Below, piece by piece: positions 2,141-59,289 of a stretch of 64,000 bases of DNA; positions within the stretch are counted from its first letter, which is position 1; each line of letters opens with the position of its first letter. Below the pieces are notes generated by a model. That model was not told the DNA's origin. It saw nothing but the letters and a program-made list of their open reading frames with translations, and did not search any database. The translations under genes and the position numbers were made by a program. The stretch spans positions 32,054,001 to 32,118,000 of the forward strand of contig OX597814.1 in NCBI GenBank assembly GCA_951406725.2. Reading direction: 5' to 3'. The stretch is from Octopus vulgaris. Its lineage: Eukaryota.

Positions 2141-3952
2141 AATACAAACGATACTTATTGTACTACTAACATATTACTGCCTTAGTAACTGGATATGAAC
2201 CAACAACACTTTAGTCTGTAGTCTTACGCATTACACTTTATATCTTCATTTTTATATTTCCTGCTTAACTACATTGTAGATCATCTGATTTAGTATATAT
2301 AATGTTTTTGTACTGAAAGAGCCAAGGAGATTTGATGAAATAGATAGAGTAGATAGTTTATTGTTCTGTGGATTGAAATCCGATGTAATATGGCCAGTGA
2401 TATTTGTATGGTTTATTTCTTAATGTAATACCTTTTGACTGTAAATGCTTGATATATGTTAAATTTCGTTTGTATTCCGTCGGTAACCTTTAATAATAGA
2501 CTGTAAAATATCATTTCTTCTCAGTTAATACTCATATTTATGAGAACTCCCAACAACACTAAGTCTACGATCAATTTAATATAATTGCATGCTTTCTTTG
2601 TGATGAATTTCTTACTAGAGAGGTTAATCTATAGCTTTCAACAATAATAAAAGGCATTGCTTTAGGACATACCATTTGAACAGTTCGAATTTACTCTGAA
2701 AAACCCCATGTCAGTGAATTTCACTTGAAGGAACTTCACAACAGTTTCCTTTTCTCTCTGATGTGTATGTAAACTTCTTTAATTCTAAAGATCCAGCACT
2801 TTCAAATGTTGATAATAAATGTTTTTAGCCAGCGGAGCTGAATTCCAGCATAGAATAGAGATTGGTTTAAGGAAAATTGATTTTTGTTTAAACTATGTAT
2901 AAACAGTTACACAACTCGAATCACGGATACTGAAACCTGATTTGAAGATATATAATTCTTCATACACAATAAACATTTCCATTGATATTAGAGATTCATA
3001 GCAACAACACGGATTGTTGTATTCAACATTCCCTGTCTAGTATACACATTATAAAAAGAAAAAAGAAAAGAAGAGACATCCAGTTAACCAATGAAATGCC
3101 AAAGATTGAAGTCTGTTGTAGAAATTCACATTACAGTGCTACATGTTTATGGATTACGAAAACATCAGTTTTTGTGAACCCGTAATATGTTATTTTATTC
3201 AACAAAAAACGGGATTTTTTTATGGAGAATGTTCAATTTTCATTGCTTAACTATACAAATAAAAACAAATTCTTTGATTTATAAAAAAAGCAGGATTTGT
3301 GGCTAAACACCAATAAATATGTAAAAGTAATCTGCAACATTTCAGAACAGGTCAGAATCAAAGGACTCGAATAAAGAATTGAAATTACATTAGGCATTTA
3401 CTGATTGATGCTCAAGCTGCAGTCGGAAGCTGAACTAGTATCTGATTTAATATTACGGATGGAAATAATTCTGTCTGATTTGATATTGCGGGAAGACATA
3501 ATTCAATAGAATATAATAGCATCACTATTATAAGTTCGTTTCATCAATTCAGTCTTCTTACTTTATGAGTTCCTGTCCTATAGGTGATTAGTGCCGCCAA
3601 GATAAAATCTTCGGCTTTTCATAAGATATCTTTATTACCTTATATATACGTATACATCTGGTTAGAGAATTTCGAATCTACCCATCTGCTTTACGCAGCG
3701 CCAATGTATGTAAAAGTCAATTAGTAATTGAGTAAATGACATATTTTTATTGAAATTAACACGTGAATAAAAGTATTTCTTTTTGGATTGCAAAATATTT
3801 GTGCTTTTTTTGTTAGAAATCTATCAACAGGGAAAACAGAAACAGGCAATATTTGATCAACAAACCCAAAACAGCACTTCATCCCAAATATGACTAAACA
3901 TATATCAATAAACACATAAGTAATAGTTGAAATAAATGCTACTGGAATGATC

Positions 3953-4122
3953 GGCGCAGGAGTGGCTGTGTGGTAAGTAACTTGCTAACCAACCACATGG
4001 TTCCGGGTTCAGTCCCACTGCGTGGCATCTTGGGCAAGTGTCTTCTGCTATAGCCCGAGTCGACCAATGCCTTGTGAGTGAATTTGGTAGACGGAAACTG
4101 AAAGAAGCCTGTCGTATATATG

Positions 4123-33540: not shown

Positions 33541-33783
33541 CCGGAGTAAACACATAAATGTGAAACAAGGTGGAAAAAAAGAGTACTCAAATACCAGTGG
33601 TAGAGTAATATGCTTTATTTAAAGCAGCAGAAAATTCAACAAAATCTGTTACTCTGAGTTTCTCGTTGCCGTTCATCAGACAGTTTTTGTTAGAATGGGA
33701 CCGATATATCAATTCAATCCAGAGTCTGGATTGAAACTCAGAGTAACAGATTTTTTTGAATTTTCTGCTGCTTTAAATAAAGT

Positions 33784-33785
<2 letters not shown>
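33541..33785 (-). mobile_element. Penelope-like pLTR relic with ~50-bp inverted duplication, embedded in (TA)n
   Basis: Arms 33613-33662 and 33733-33782 are near-perfect inverted repeats. Contains the hammerhead motif, with (TA)n on both sides. Confidence 0.65.
33646..33683 (-). ncRNA. Minimal type-I hammerhead ribozyme motif
   Basis: Minus strand: CUGU-CUGAUGA-aCG(GCAA)CGa-GAAA-CUCaGAG-UA-ACAG. Stem I CUGU/ACAG, GNRA loop II. Confidence 0.8.
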
Positions 33786-33825
<40 letters not shown>

Positions 33826-34010: not shown

Positions 34011-34419
34011 CATATTTACCGTCCAAGCAGGTAGAATTATATTTACTGTCATAAAATATTTTAATTTCGTCAGATGCAACAGAGTTGAGAATTTTCGCTA
34101 GAATGCTATCCATTACTGATATCCTATCAGACCTCATCTCTCTAGAGATCAGCTACTGGGCAATGTGTCCCATGACTGTGTAATTGATCATGTAAGATGC
34201 TGAAGTGAAATTCTCATAGGTCTTGTCTGATAGCCAATCTGAGATGACACCACTTTATTGAAATTTCGTAGACACCCTTCAAATTCCGAACAACATTCGA
34301 AATTGTACTTGCTTGGCGAGTGAATTGAGCTGAGATTGCGATTTCGCAACAAAAACATTGCACAGGGGCTGAAACGTGATAGATACTTAAAATACATAAT
34401 AGACTTTGGATAAATTTCT

Positions 34420-34746
34420 GTGGTACTTTCTACGATGAGTCAAATCAGAAAATGCGCAGATATGAAATTTGCTTGTCCCTTCTCCGTAACCAGAGCGATC
34501 CATTTCTCGACGGTATTGTAACTTGCAATGAAAAGTGGATTCTGTAAAATTTAAAACGTTTTTCACAGTCGTTGGATCAAAATAAAGCACCGAAAACCTT
34601 CCCTAAATCTGTGCTCTTCAAAAAGATGTTTATGGTGATTGTTTGGTGGTGCACTGCTAGACTCATCCACTATAACTACTTAAAACCCAGAAAATCATTA
34701 CCGCAGAAACATATTGCCATGAAATTGCCAAAATGAACGAAATGAA
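34420..34746 (+). pseudogene. Hsmar1-like (cecropia-type) mariner transposase, 5' piece
   Basis: NQKMRRYEICLSLLRNQSDPFLDGIVTCNEKWIL...KAPKTFPK...MVIVWW...LIHY...ITAETYCHEIAKMNE, collinear with Hsmar1. Confidence 0.85.
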
Positions 34747-34783
34747 GGCGTAAGAATGGCTGTGTGGTAAGTAGCTTCTTACC

Positions 34784-36932
34784 GAACGGACGCGTTTTTT
34801 TTTTCGCTCCGGCAAATGTCACGTTTTAACTTGAATCGTTGAACTTTTGACTCGACTACAGGTAGGCGTTTTGTATTTTTGGGAGCTTAGTGAAGTCTAT
34901 TACTTGCATTTAATGTTTTTTAGCATTTAATATTTTTTAGCAGATAATAAACTCCACTTTGCTCCAGGTATAATTTTTCTGCCTGTTGTCGAGTGTAAAG
35001 ACTCACTTTGCAGTCAGAATTGTATTTTTAAAGCGGCGTAGTCCGTCTGCAAAAATTGTTTTTGAAATTGTCTTTGTGTTATCCACGTGAATTACCAAGG
35101 AGTACCAAGGATTATTTTATCAATGTGTTTTACCAACTGTGCATTTGGCCTGGAATACAATTTTTTGGCCGAAAAAAGTGAAAACAAAAAAAAAAGAAAA
35201 AATTTATTCCTTTGTCTGGATTTGAACTCTCTTTCTCCGTCTATCATTTATTTTTTTTAAAAAGAACTTTTTTGAACTGCTATTTCTAATTTTATTTCTT
35301 CCCTTCTGTTGTATTTTTCATTCTCCTTTCTGTGTCTTATTTTATTTTATCACATTTTGAACTGTTTTTAAATCTTACGTTATGGCAAAGAAATTCACTG
35401 TGTGGGATTTGACACCTCCCAAAAAATATTTGAATGAGCTCGAGGAAAAGACCGTGGTGCTGAGGACATATTCGAAGTCGCTCGACACCATAGCAGTCTT
35501 TCCAAAGGCCACTATTGTTAACGAGCTGGCAGACTACATGCCAGCCGTTAAATATATCGCACGGGGAGTTAAATACGCAACGGTTTGGTTGCTATTTAAC
35601 TCCCCTAAAGCAGCTTGCGAATTTTCAAGCCAGCCCATTGAGGGCAAACAAATATTGTTCCTCCCAAATTACAAGGGAGAAAAATTGTTGAGAGCTTGGA
35701 TCTGCGGCTTACCACCAGGCGTTGAGCCCGAGTGGATAGAGGACTCTATCCGCCGGGGCTTGGATGGTAGCAGTTCCAAGCTACTGAACGTAAAAGTACA
35801 GCCTGCGGCTGATTGGGAGGGGTCAAGAGCTGTTTTGACCCTATGGACCCAGTCAGCCAAAAGTCTGGTTTTACCGGACTTTTTGAGGATGGCCGGGTAC
35901 AGGTATCCAGTGATGCTTGAGGGACGCCCCCCCCAAGTGTCACCTGTGCCTGGAGCCTGGATATATCAAGAGGAAGTGTCCCGGTGGCCGTGGTGCTGCC
36001 CCGGAGCATGAAAAGGAAAAGGTGCCCGCTGCCCCCTCATTGGAGGGGGAGACGGTGGAAGTCGTGGAGGAGGTTGCCTCCACGAAAAGAAAAAGACAGG
36101 TGAGCAACAATGGTTGCTCACCAAAGAACGTACAGACGGAGGAGGAGGATAGCGACCCCCCGTGTCTGCCGAAGGAGCCCCCCGGGCTAGCAGCCTCTAA
36201 AAAAAAAAGAGGAAAAAAAAAAGAAAAAGAGGTCGGACGGCTGACGTTTCTGTGTCGCCGACGGAGCCGCGGGTGGGACGTGTGCCACCCGCGGACAGTG
36301 CTCCGTCAGTGGAAAGTGTGCCACTGACGGATCAGTGTGAGGTCCCTTCCTGTGAAGAGGAGTTGTTTCTCCTCCTTTACCACAAGGGAGGGAAGGTGGA
36401 AAAGTTTTTGAATGGCTTGGGTGACCGAGAACGCAAGGACACGGTCAGCTCAAGGAGTCCGTTATGGCCTCCGTGGGTAGCTGCGGAGGTAGTAACGGAA
36501 AACATTTTGTCAAGGGTCACAAAGACCTTTGAGAGGAAACATTTTACTTTTCTCTTTGCAGGCCTCGACTTGTCGTCGCAGAGTTGTCTGCAGGCGGCAA
36601 GACAATTTGCTTCGGGGACCTGACAGGGAGAATTTTTGTTATTTCATATACTGCCCTTGTGGCAAAAGAAATGAAAAAAAGAACTTTGTAAGAGGTTTTA
36701 GTGCCTCCTTCGTGTAAGAGGTTTGCAACCTCATGTCGATTTATTGAAACTAAAGAAAAAAGAAAATTGAACTTATTAAAAAAAGAACAATATCTTAGAG
36801 AAGCGGAAGTCGGCTGGCGCTTTTTGACTTCTCCCATCACCATCTTCATCCACCACCACCATCATCCATTACTGTCTTTGTCCAGCCCGTAGCTACTCTG
36901 TGTACTGCCCTAGTGGCAAAATCGTTGAAATA
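34784..36932 (+). mobile_element. ~2.15-kb non-autonomous ORF1-only (HAL1-like) L1/Tx1-type retroelement
   Basis: 15-16-bp TSD aagtagctt-cttacc (34769-34783) / aagtagcttgtttacc (36933-36948). ~600-bp 5' UTR, single gag-like ORF, ~310-bp 3' UTR ending gccctagtggcaaaatcgttgaaataaa. No RT or endonuclease seen. Confidence 0.8.
35382..36623 (+). CDS. LINE ORF1/gag-like nucleic-acid-binding protein (~413 aa if two homopolymer indels are corrected): putative RRM-like N-terminal region, zinc knuckle, acidic/basic tail
   Basis: ORFs 35382-36011, 35917-36327 and 36252-36623 join via a C8 run (35927-35934) and A10 runs (36199-36222). The first and last ORFs share a frame. EGRPPKCHLCLEPGYIKRKCP = Cx2Cx4(H>Y)x4C knuckle preceded by the typical 'GxP' motif. 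Confidence 0.75.
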
Positions 36933-37325
36933 AAGTAGCTTGTTTACCAGCCACATGGTTCCGGGTTCAGTCCCACTGCGTGGGATCTTTGACAAGTGTC
37001 TTCTACTATAGCCTCGGGCCGATCAAAGCCTTGTGAGTGGATTTGGTAGATAGAAACTGAAAGAAGCCCATCGTATATATGTACAGATATGTATGTATGT
37101 GTATATGTTAGTCTGTCTGTGTTTGTCTCCCCAACATCGCTTGACAACCGATGCTGGTGTGTTTACGTCTCCGTAACTTAGCGGTTCGGTAAATGAGACC
37201 GATAGAATAAGTACTAGGCTTACAAAGAATAAGTCCTAGGGTCGATTTTCTCGACTAAAGGCGGTGCTCTAGCATAGCCACAGTCAAAGGACTGAAACAA
37301 GTAAAAGAGTAAAAAAGAGTAAAAA

Positions 37326-37744
37326 GAAAAACTGTAACTCCTCCGTCCTTGACTGGTCAAAAAAGAGGGCCAATTATTCTTGATGACAATGCTCGACCAA
37401 ACGTTTCACTAATGACGCTCCAGAAGTTGAGGTTACTCAGCTACGAAGTTCTCCTCCACTCACCTTATTCACCAGACCTTTCTCCTACCAACTATCAATT
37501 TTTCAAGTACCTTGATTGTTTTTGCGAGAGGAGTTCAAAAATCAAACCGATGCTGAAACTGTGTTCAAAGAGATCCAGAACTCCAGATTTTTATGTTACC
37601 AGAATAGACAAACATGTCACTCGTTGGCAAAATTGTGTTGATTGTAATGGTACTTATTTGATGAATAAAATTTCAGCATTGCTGAAATATACTGCGATGA
37701 AGTTTACGTTTCAAAACGTTGCTTACTTTTTACTCAAACTCGTA
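37326..37744 (+). pseudogene. Hsmar1-like mariner transposase, 3' piece and right TIR
   Basis: GPIILDDNARP...YEVLLHSPYSPDLSPTNYQFFKYLD...RWQNCVDCNGTY. The end gcttactttttactcaaactcgTA resembles a mariner TIR. Confidence 0.88.
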
Positions 37745-39319
37745 CACAGCCTTCCAGAGGTGTTAAGTAAGTAACATTGGCCAACACATATAATATATGA
37801 AAATATTATTTTACACTTCTTAGCATATTACAAATTAAGTGAAAAATGGTATACCTGCTTCTAAATTTCACAATACAATTACACAAAGGGCTATTTTTGT
37901 AAACATAAAATCTGTTGAATCGACAGTCTTCTTCTGCTACGATATTTTAAATCTGTATTAACAATGGTTTATTATATTAAATACAGAATAGTAAAACTTG
38001 AATGAACCTCACTCGCCAATGAAGAAGCTTAACCATATGAACATTTTATACTTAAACGGTTGGCGATAGAAACCTCCATGAATTACCTTTGATTCTACTG
38101 CTTCACTTTCATTCTATTATGTGTTTTCAGTGTGTAATTGAAAGACATGTAAACCCAAATCCCTGCAGTCTCAAACGATCGTATACAGCCGTTAGCAAAA
38201 ACTAAGGAATCTAAGAATTAAAAGTACTATTTTAATACTTGCTCATGTTGTTCAAATTACTGTTGTTAATCATCAAACCATGTCTCATTCACCAAGACTA
38301 TATTCAGAACAATTCAATCAGGGCTATCCATTTTCTCTTTTAGTTAGGGTTCATTTAGGATTTAGAAATTTATCTAATATAGTAAATGAAAATGAAGTTG
38401 AAATTCTGACAAACTTTGATGTAAATGAGTTGAATGTAAAGATGCCGGGAAAACTTGAATAAAAATGCATTAAGCTGATTACTAAAATACACTGGAGGAA
38501 ATGTTAACAGTATTTAGCTACTATTTCATAGAGGTTTGAGTTACCCTTGTTAACTCGTACTCAATAGAGAAAAGTAAGTAAAACCAAAATGGATATAACA
38601 TAGACTTCAGTAAATTAATTTAAGGTAGATTTATTCCTCTAATCTGTGTTCAAATCCCGTCAAAGGCCAGGTTGTCTTTCGTTACAGCCTGATCGATATT
38701 GTAAATAACTTTTCACTGAATATTGGAAACTAAATATTGCACCTGTGAGACTGCTAAGATGGAAAGCTTCTTACACTGCGAATAGAAAAGTTTAATAACT
38801 TTTATATGTTTCAGGTGCAAAAGCTAGTCATCCGAATTGAACGGTCAAAAGATGTAAGTCTATATAGTAACGGCCACGTTGAACACTCTACGGAAAGCCA
38901 TTCCGCGACCCCCGTGTGAGGGCAACAAGCATACTACATTCATCTTTTGTTACCACAACCACTAACACACACACACCGTGATGGTGTGGGGTCACTTCCG
39001 GCACAAAAAACAATATGGTGGAACTGCATAGACATATTTCTTGACTGTTTACATCTAACGATCGGTCTTGTTTCTGAAATACAGAGAGGTTATCAAACGT
39101 TTATCATTTTGCTTTGTAAGAAGCTCTCCATCTTCATTCTTTAGATATTTTTCTTTTTTGTCACAATGATCCAGGTAAATTACAATATTCTAATAATCAC
39201 GTGGTAGTGAACAGTGCACTGTATGAGTTAAAATCTTCAACCACAGACGAGACAGCTGCACGGTTTCAATTACGACAATAAATCAGTTAAAAGTATCTAC
39301 ATTCTATTCCTTTAGAATA

Positions 39320-57641: not shown

Positions 57642-59289
57642 CACTACCGTCAGAAATTAATTAGCACCCTTGATTTTCTCTTCACTCAAGGTATTTGCTG
57701 TCACCTAGTGGCCATATCTCGAACTATTGCTTTGTTGTGAGTTCACTGTTGCGCAGAACGATGACGTAACTTTGTTTGCAGAGCAGTTTGAGAGTCTACA
57801 GCCTAATGATGTTGACATAGCAGTGCAACAACAACTTGGAGTGCGGATGCAGACAAATCTTCCTTTGTTTAATAGATATAGGTAGCGCCTCGCAAGGACC
57901 GAAATCACACCGTACTAAGTTTTCTCATCGCGTAAGACGTTTTGAACAGCTCGTAGGTTAATTGATTGTGTATTTGCAAGATTTTTTTCCTCACAAATTC
58001 TCCTACACTCTGCTTGATGACGTCACTTCTGGTTCACAAAACGTTCTGTTATACATCAAATAAAGTGAGAAATTCTGCTTTCTTTCTTTTTTGTTTAATG
58101 AATAATAACTCATAGCAGTTTTGTTATAGCATAACATTATTCAAATGAATAGTTTTAATGAAAATAACTGGTTTTTATCGTTCATTCCTAGATGGGCCCA
58201 AGACCTCGCATGACCTTGGAGAGACGGTACGAGGCTCTCTCGTGGCGTGGGAAGCTGTCGGAGGCTGCAATAGCCAGAAAACTTGGTGTAGCCAGGCGCA
58301 CAATTCAGTGCTTATTTAAGAAATACGAGGAAACCGGATCAGCAGCTGACGAAAAGGGTAGGGGACGGAAGAGGCTAACGACCCAGTGGGAGGACCGGAT
58401 GCTGATCCGAAAGTCGCTGTACAACCGAAGGGCAACGAGCCAGCAACTGGCGGAGGAGATGTAAAAGATGACAGGGAAGCAGTTGTCTACAACCACCGTC
58501 AAGACCAGATTACTGGAAGCTGGTCTAAAATCCTGTAGGGCCGCCCATAAGCCGCTCCTTACAGCCCAAAACTGGAAAGGCGGCTGCTCTGGGCCCGTGC
58601 CCACAAGACATGGACCGTGCAGCAGTGGTGGACAGTGATGTTCACTGACGAGTCGCGATTCAGTCTCGTCAGTCACAAGCCTGTCCATGTGCGACGCCGC
58701 AGGGGTGAGCGCTTCAACAAAGACTGCATTGCTCTCACCATGAAGCATGGTGGGGGTGGTCTGATGGTGTGAGGGGCGTTCAGCTACAGTGGTGTTGGGC
58801 GGCTCTATGCCGTCGAAGGCAACATCAACGCAGCAAAGTACGTTGAGATAGTACGGGATACCTCTTTGTTGGCGAGGAGTACGTGCTCCAGCAGGACAAC
58901 GTGCCTTCCCACACAGCCAAGCTCACAACCGGTTTCTTCAAGGACCATGGGGTAACGGTCATGGACTGGCCTGGCCAGTCACCTGACCTGAACCGACACA
59001 AGCTGTTTGGGGCACTTCTTGCTGCATGGAGGGCCATCCCTGCACAGTACCTGCAGGCACTCATAGACAGCATGCCGACCCGCGTAGCAGCTGTCATTGC
59101 TGCCAAAGAAGGAGCAACAAGATATTGACTAAATTTCACGATTAATAACAATTATGTGGTGTGCTGGGATATGTTTTAATAAATTTTTGATTATAAATGA
59201 GTTCGTTTCTGATAATAAGTTAATTAAATTAAGAAAATGTAAGAAAATGTAGAAATTTGAGAAGTGCTAATTAATTTCCGACGCAAGTG
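57642..59289 (+). mobile_element. Tc1-like DNA transposon (1.65 kb)
   Basis: TA TSDs at 57640-57641 and 59290-59291. Imperfect ~26-bp TIRs CACTACCGTCAGAAATTAATTAGCAC / CACTTGCGTCGGAAATTAATTAGCAC. Confidence 0.92.
58192..59128 (+). pseudogene. Tc1 transposase pseudogene
   Basis: HTH (IARKLGVARRTI), GRKR linker, VMFTDESRF, KHGGGGLMV*G, QQDNVPSH, WPGQSPDLN, LIDSMPTRVAAVIAAKEGATRY. Contains stops, frameshifts and a deletion removing the catalytic E. Confidence 0.92.

Follow-up and report, generated by a model that had tools for sequence, protein, structure and literature searches.

The insert at 34784-36932 of the window, by which we mean the whole 64,000-nucleotide stretch of Octopus vulgaris DNA analysed here, is best explained as a full-length member of a family of ORF1-only LINEs that occupies one fixed site in the head of an abundant octopus SINE. 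A Tx1-like LINE resident at the same site probably mobilises this family in trans, its ORF2 protein being predicted to recognise the 3′ end of hairpin and GAAATA that the two have in common. We give this reading a probability of roughly 0.85. The genome carries the family at that site and without ORF2, alongside a candidate helper LINE of defined anatomy with the same 3′ end; ORF1 is under purifying selection, and the elements lie in mixed tandem arrays.

An earlier note, made from the letters of the window, had described a 2.15-kb insert in a SINE head with a long 5′ UTR and a short 3′ UTR, and these features were borne out. The locus is laid out as follows.

34747-34768, plus strand: 5′ part of the host SINE head, matching bases 16-56 of an intact SINE copy, with the insertion point next
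34769-34777, plus strand: target duplication AAGTAGCTT, identical to 36933-36941
34778-34783, plus strand: target-like 5′ terminus of the CTTCTTACC type, likely element-borne; the same 5′ motif occurs in 6 single insertions with differing 3′ targets
34784-35381, plus strand: T-rich 5′ UTR of 598 nt, conserved in full-length copies, with a presumed internal promoter
35382-35934, plus strand: N-terminal part of ORF1 with two predicted RRM-fold domains, after the fold of residues 1-210 of an intact relative (L015)
35938-35979, plus strand: CCHC zinc knuckle (PF00098 in relatives), His replaced by Tyr in the window copy
35980-36623, plus strand: basic low-complexity linker and C-terminal alpha/beta domain of ~90 aa
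36624-36932, plus strand: 3′ UTR of 309 nt, ending in GAAATA without a poly(A) tail
36906-36918, plus strand: terminal hairpin TGCC-N5-GGCA (4 bp), common to the autonomous LINE
36933-37324, plus strand: rest of the host SINE (target, B-box-like motif, body and tail), 80% identical over 430 nt to an intact window copy

The coding part is GC-richer (0.48-0.60) than its surroundings (~0.3-0.4), as had been noted, and the ~413-codon ORF that went with this description is broken in the window copy into three frames (35382-36011, 35914-36327 and 36201-36623) by frameshifts at a C8 run (35927-35934) and an A10 run (36199-36208). The lengths of these C and A runs differ among all seven near-identical copies, so slippage and assembly error are both possible sources of the shifts; other copies have uninterrupted ORFs of 393-416 aa. 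Of the proposed L1/Tx1-ORF1-type zinc knuckle, the CCHC motif was located and its histidine is a tyrosine here, while in relatives PF00098 is matched at E 0.0013, just under the curated cut-off; Pfam gave no match for the three ORF fragments of the window. The repeats flanking the insert, AAGTAGCTTCTTACC (34769-34783) and AAGTAGCTTGTTTACC (36933-36948), are identical only over their first 9 bp. Of the 15-16-bp target site duplication first described, only ~9 bp therefore agree with the local target; the rest varies with the element subfamily and is likely element-borne. Copies across the genome show the same SINE-head flank as 34747-34768, and in one of them (L010) a locus-specific variant within the target-duplication stretch is common to both element ends. 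The window subfamily is also a mosaic: compared with L023, L028, L026 and L071, the first 1.2 kb of 34769-36932 are 90-97% like one subfamily and the last 1 kb 88-98% like another, with a switch near the zinc knuckle, and the same pattern is found between L015 and L087 (dS 1.45 vs 0.09).

The host SINE pattern has nine matches in the window vs none in 100 shuffles, and reversed-pattern controls gave no match genome-wide, which excludes chance. Its head contains what we take to be an A-box-like motif (34757-34767), and its remainder what is presumably a B-box-like motif (36964-36974), the two lying ~44 nt apart in the SINE as judged by eye. Because the insertion site directly follows the A-box-like motif, insertion parts it from the B-box-like one. 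ARAGORN found no tRNA in the 64-kb window, and Rfam no tRNA match in one intact SINE copy. Nine further full or partial SINE copies lie at 3953, 7271, 14003, 20365, 22830, 39727, 41090, 42075 and 63921, none of which matches the ORF1 or ORF2 queries. The SINE tail is unlike the helper end, and another LINE therefore likely mobilises the SINE itself. The target at 36933-36948 has dyad symmetry around CTTG, kept by both A4/T13 and T4/A13 variants. The SINE in turn interrupts a decayed mariner-type transposase (window flanks 34381-34742 and 37331-37774; PF01359, E 6.6e-8, 34551-34733), and the locus reads as a three-level nest of mariner, SINE and ORF1-only LINE. The joints in sequencing runs that would bear on empty-site polymorphism at the window locus derive from other SINE copies and are not assignable to it. 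Elsewhere in the window, a MITE-like 54-nt inverted repeat (33609-33786; 96% complementary, arms 70 nt apart) lies between AT microsatellites, and a 205-codon open frame on the minus strand (58308-58922) has no significant Pfam match and a wording that suggests transposase antisense.

Searches of a 2.8-Gb genome (G000) returned 78 DNA matches to the element when the best 39 of 2,465 candidates were scored, among them six other full-length copies at 97-98% identity, which answers the question raised earlier of whether further ~2.1-kb copies exist. At the protein level, the ORF1 N-terminus has at least 150 matches with 63-100% identity (the best 150 of 11,551). Over half of sampled words are common to four sequencing runs with four organism codes; each of three DNA or unlabelled runs covers 29-30 of 30 bins of the element, and contigs of one presumed-RNA run cover 28 of 30, although transcription is not demonstrable from such contigs. 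A fixed 3′ end, variable 5′ truncation and a target duplication, the hallmarks of retrotransposition, are all present. The absence of ORF2, reported for the window insert, extends to the family. We collected 90 distinct units of less than 6.2 kb with target marks on both sides, much of the sample having been gathered by the target pattern. The window ORF1 type is carried by 63 of them, mostly 1.9-2.3 kb long and none with ORF2, and the outcome named in advance as fatal to the proposal, that all other copies have a full ORF2, did not occur. Helper-type ORF1 is carried by five units, all with ORF2, and the rest are three truncated ORF2 pieces, one second ORF1-only type and 18 units without a protein match. 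Of six further APE-bearing loci, the four with a detectable upstream ORF1 all have the helper type.

The same counts bear on the possibility that the family consists of recurrent internal deletions of an unsampled autonomous LINE with the same ORF1, which we regard as highly improbable. Such a LINE might escape searches that score only the best candidates, and one locus (L210) does place the window ORF1 type upstream of ORF2. This locus is an ORF1-only copy joined to a helper ORF2, its 3′ UTR meeting the end of the helper ORF1 (2200-2400, reverse strand), and reads as a microhomology deletion junction within an array, a possible route to chimeric elements. Moreover, every autonomous ORF1 seen is only ~24-26% identical to the ORF1-only type and falls outside its clade, and subfamilies separated by dS of up to 1.9 all lack ORF2, as do the 63 bounded units. 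We also rejected two other origins. A processed pseudogene of a host gene, which the earlier note had named as a refuting result, does not fit an insert without poly(A) at one fixed site, with all inspected genome matches being element copies and the ORF being a LINE ORF1 homologue (26% identity to the helper ORF1, E 4e-19). A Penelope-like or LTR origin, raised by the tandem copies, is contradicted by the lack of terminal repeats, the fixed 3′ ends with 5′ truncations and the LINE ORF1 homology. A second, shorter ORF1-only lineage occupies the same site (L071, a 1,473-bp unit with a 304-aa ORF at 2820-3734, minus strand; similar matches at L190, L112, L119, L125, L128 and L132); in the tree, its ORF1 falls with those of the autonomous elements, and at least two separate losses of ORF2 are therefore likely.

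The targeting of SINE heads proposed from the single insert holds across the genome. Among loci picked by similarity alone (31 rows, one of them a duplicate), AAGTAG directly follows all 30 distinct 3′ ends, 29 of which run on into SINE or the next element. The 3′-hairpin pattern on its own has 238 genome matches, with AAAGTAGY next in 149; among the first 100 listed, own-type hairpins are at the site in 55 of 55 cases and hairpins of a sister type in 12 of 45. Of the 30 hairpin loci listed first, 23 lie at AAGTAG within SINE or an array, six at the same position of an older AAGAAG variant and one at AAGTAG only. Two of ~60 inspected 3′ ends (L029 and L101) have AAGTAG without SINE downstream. 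By exact matching, 583 T-variant SINE heads are occupied vs 75,961 empty, and 131 A-variant heads are occupied vs 6,028 empty, the A-variant census being the less complete since it covered only 1.5 kb upstream for most loci.

A composite of SINE head, element and SINE body moving as a unit, by SINE-driven retroposition or segmental duplication after one ancestral insertion, would also place SINE on both sides of every copy and let element and host SINE diverge in parallel by SINE variant. This we find barely credible, as near-identical elements (L002-L006) sit in different SINE variants and the exact 3′ junction is common to unrelated elements (the helper and the second ORF1-only lineage) and to 5′-truncated copies of 51-1,497 nt; the truncated copies largely refute it. 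T runs at the element 5′ end would, in addition, stop Pol III.

An ORF2 donor had been postulated, and a candidate autonomous LINE was found at the same site, upstream of occupied targets. It is 5.43-5.46 kb long and encodes an ORF1 of 467 aa and an ORF2 of 1,133 aa with APE, RT and zf-RVT domains; open ORF2 frames of 1,133-1,150 aa are present in 14 of 150 listed copies. The best PDB match of its ORF2 is L1 ORF2p (E 3e-48), with R2 at E 1e-13, and its closest RT homologues, at 40-44% identity, are unnamed. The helper ORF1 has a CCHC motif, and the model of the homologous ORF1-only protein has two RRMs, an ORF1 type linked to Tx1 in the available text of PMC5203782. We call the helper Tx1-like from its L1-group RT, RRM/CCHC ORF1, domain architecture and site specificity rather than from a tree with named Tx1 families, and the earlier label ‘Tx1-related’ stands to the same extent, on architecture and L1-group RT. 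A pattern that fixes one downstream base gave 101 helper 3′ ends, and AAGTAGC follows 99 of the 100 listed, GAGTAGC the other. The 67 T-variant junctions listed first break down into 39 preceded by the ORF1-only protein, 10 truncated ones with the UTR of that family, 13 of ORF2 type, one of the second ORF1-only type and four unclear cases.

Element and helper show no DNA similarity outside their last 30 nt, where both end in a 4-bp hairpin followed by GAAATA. Across 24 diverse ends picked by hand, 91.6% of hairpin cells are paired and three of the four pairs have compensatory changes, the outer pair alternating among U-A, G-C, A-U and C-G. The covariation score was reached in none of 500 shuffles, a result that relatedness of the sequences can inflate, and the folding energy of the hairpin is not above that of shuffles (z -0.4 and -0.2). 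From this common end and site, the helper is the likely ORF2 donor of the ORF1-only family; several autonomous families use the site, and the donor for the window subfamily in particular may be any one of them.

Structure prediction on the ORF, which the earlier note had suggested, resolved its N-terminal half in the intact relative L015 as two RRMs that precede the CCHC knuckle. Residues 1-210 were modelled with a pLDDT of 89.9 from a 48-sequence alignment, with RRM domains at 14-102 and 103-185 (Z 8.5 and 8.3; rmsd 2.6 and 2.1 over 81 and 73 residues), and Foldseek matched the model to tandem-RRM proteins at E 2e-4. A first fold from 15 close sequences had an unusable N-terminus (pLDDT ~30) and gave the C-terminal alpha/beta domain of ~90 aa a pLDDT of ~55-89; this domain has no clear structural match (best Z 5.2; no Foldseek match with E <0.001). 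An ESM Atlas lead pointed to CCHC proteins and ZCCHC3-type RNA-binding domains (0.90-0.92), and the named homologues of ORF1 are from Octopus and Argonauta.

The N-terminal half of ORF1 is under purifying selection. Across 203 codons of eight intact copies, 27 subfamily pairs with dS >0.1 (up to 1.9) have a median dN/dS of 0.21 and a maximum of 0.30, in line with the selection looked for among copies; one near-identical pair, left out of the median, has 1.06. In the linker and the C-terminal domain, both more poorly aligned, dN/dS is 0.46 and 0.54. The ORF1-only proteins form one clade (support 100/100) on a stem of 1.8 changes per site, apart from the helper ORF1s. With just 26% identity between the ORF1-only and helper types of ORF1, the ORF1-only lineage is old, and it has diversified and recombined without ORF2.

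The same family and helper allow another reading of this selection, in which ORF1p is kept for a role in trans, co-assembling with the helper particle and enhancing or redirecting it, as proposed for HeT-A Gag, or interfering with it. The ORF1-only protein has a C-terminal domain of its own, ORF1-only ends outnumber ORF2-bearing ones by ~49 to 13 at the first 67 T-variant junctions, and multimerisation with an autonomous partner is proposed for HeT-A, HAL1 and Ag-Sponge in the available text of PMC5786205. Selection along transposing lineages is, however, what cis-acting packaging predicts, and the two ORF1 types are far apart in sequence; we consider the trans role unlikely, though much less so than internal deletion or a mobile composite.

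Under the preferred reading, in which ORF1p serves its own RNA, insertion would proceed as follows. An internal promoter would drive transcription of the element, with the RNA beginning within the target-like 5′ end, and the element's own ORF1p would coat this RNA, which may be why ORF1 is kept. The helper APE would then nick the bottom strand at TT|AC, facing GGT|AAGTAG, to leave a TT end that would serve as primer for reverse transcription on the terminal AA of the RNA. The top strand would be cut ~15-16 nt downstream, and the cDNA end with its target mimic would anneal to the top-strand overhang. Such annealing would favour full-length insertions and rebuild the target at the 5′ junction, so that each later element would land ahead of those already present and lengthen the array.

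The junctions are consistent with a 5′ end that is partly element-borne. For 41 single insertions of full length, the prefix common to the 5′ and 3′ repeats clusters near 9 and 16 nt. The 5′ repeat class is unlike the local 3′ target in 19 of these, and 11 carry CTTCTTACC or TCTCACC, which are subfamily-linked and unseen as a target in that set. Truncated copies have 2-19 nt in common, often with microhomology at the end. A neighbour lies 0.7-2.7 kb away from 28 of 100 listed hairpins, in head-to-tail arrays where different subfamilies stand beside the second ORF1-only type and the helper; the homogeneous arrays may in part reflect unequal crossing-over. One array (G000:C1:223,689,293-223,706,801) has seven ORF1-only units at ~2-kb spacing with a full helper LINE at its end, and another (G000:C5:78,746,209-78,756,166) has six at the same spacing.

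Elements also track variants of the SINE. Across 95 junctions, nearest-neighbour identities of element end and host SINE body fall together through four target variants (0.99/0.98, 0.97/0.96, 0.92/0.92 and 0.87/0.86), although old elements in old SINEs are expected from age alone. The young helper was found in the A variant at none of 100 ends vs 7.4% expected from empty-site counts (P ~5e-4), a share that is approximate because the two count patterns differ in length. A one-base shift in endonuclease specificity, from the older AAGAAG to the newer AAGTAG, is the likely cause; chromatin or decay bias is a possible one. We tentatively extend this, at somewhat less than even odds, to a self-renewing niche in the SINE, in which a Tx1-like endonuclease would have been re-tuned to the evolving dominant SINE head and at least two independent ORF1-only lineages with site-rebuilding 5′ mimics would form a non-telomeric counterpart of HeT-A/TART that splits promoter boxes.

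Each ingredient of this system has a precedent. Tx1-clade APE-type LINEs insert into multicopy repeats, some into other transposons (Tx1L in Tx1D, Keno in U2, Kibi/Koshi, Mutsu and Dewa), and Tx1-Mar carries a non-autonomous passenger, SINEU, to its own target, according to the available parts of PMC4494074 and PMC3706591. The available text of PMC4494074, PMC4640811 and PMC3706591 describes Tx1 families that have transposons, snRNA genes or microsatellites as targets, and a passenger that is non-coding. The targets listed in those parts of PMC4494074 and PMC3706591 are DNA transposons, LTR elements, snRNA/5S/tRNA arrays and microsatellites, with no SINE head, which is the octopus target; and whereas SINEU is non-coding, the octopus passenger is a protein-coding ORF1-only element. 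In octopus itself, the accessible text of PMC13282606 annotates 13 recently active L1-Tx1 families with 421 insertions, 2.29 Mb in all and a mean length near 5.4 kb, which resembles the helper. That text describes no target site, ORF1-only family or array, the available part of PMC8967140 likewise counts L1-Tx1 families without giving targets, and the parts of PMC4758252 and PMC9004415 available hold nothing further on such elements. We found no description in the literature of a SINE-head-specific Tx1 or an ORF1-only Tx1 derivative, for which a Repbase entry may exist, and did not find in print the combination of a fixed SINE target, selected ORF1-only Tx1-like passengers, non-telomeric mixed arrays and target tracking. 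It offers a natural series for a one-base specificity shift of an APE endonuclease and, with its intact ORF2 copies and minimal 3′ signal, is a candidate for site-specific RNA-to-DNA insertion. It also carries a warning for annotation, since such ORFs are listed as ‘uncharacterized’ octopus genes.

The insert had been called HAL1-like, which is apt for an ORF1-only non-autonomous LINE: we found a multicopy unit with defined ends, no ORF2 and a selected LINE-ORF1 homologue. HAL1 proper, mammalian and L1-derived with an L1-type ORF1p, is a different element from one with an RRM-RRM-CCHC ORF1 and homologues in Octopus and Argonauta, and the closest working analogue is HeT-A/TART. HAL1 and Ag-Sponge are not known to be site-specific, and HAL1 ends in poly(A), whereas copies of the octopus family sit at a fixed site, carry a terminal hairpin and lie in arrays. 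Both HAL1 and Ag-Sponge are non-autonomous LINE derivatives that encode only ORF1p, in the available text of PMC5753468 and PMC5786205; there HAL1 derives from the L1 clade, Ag-Sponge from the CR1 clade and HeT-A from Jockey.

ORF1-only LINEs are known from a handful of lineages, and in Drosophila the repeated loss of ORF2 is linked to elements specialised for telomeres. In the part of PMC13534243 available, HeT-A, TART and TAHRE form mixed head-to-tail arrays in which ORF1-only elements rely for ORF2 on autonomous LINEs with the same target, and new ORF1-only lineages arise from existing ones. The octopus copies likewise lie in mixed head-to-tail arrays with a co-targeted autonomous LINE. They differ in the RRM-RRM-CCHC make-up of their ORF1 and in bringing the host no benefit that is known, and whereas the Drosophila elements are of the Jockey clade and occupy chromosome ends, the octopus elements are of the L1 group, Tx1-like, and use a sequence-defined internal site in a dispersed SINE. 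That the same outcome recurs in a different group of LINEs, at a short site defined by its sequence and present in ~76,000 empty copies, suggests that a shared self-regenerating target, not telomere function, lets ORF1-only parasites persist; a single genome offers hundreds of dated insertions on which to test the idea.
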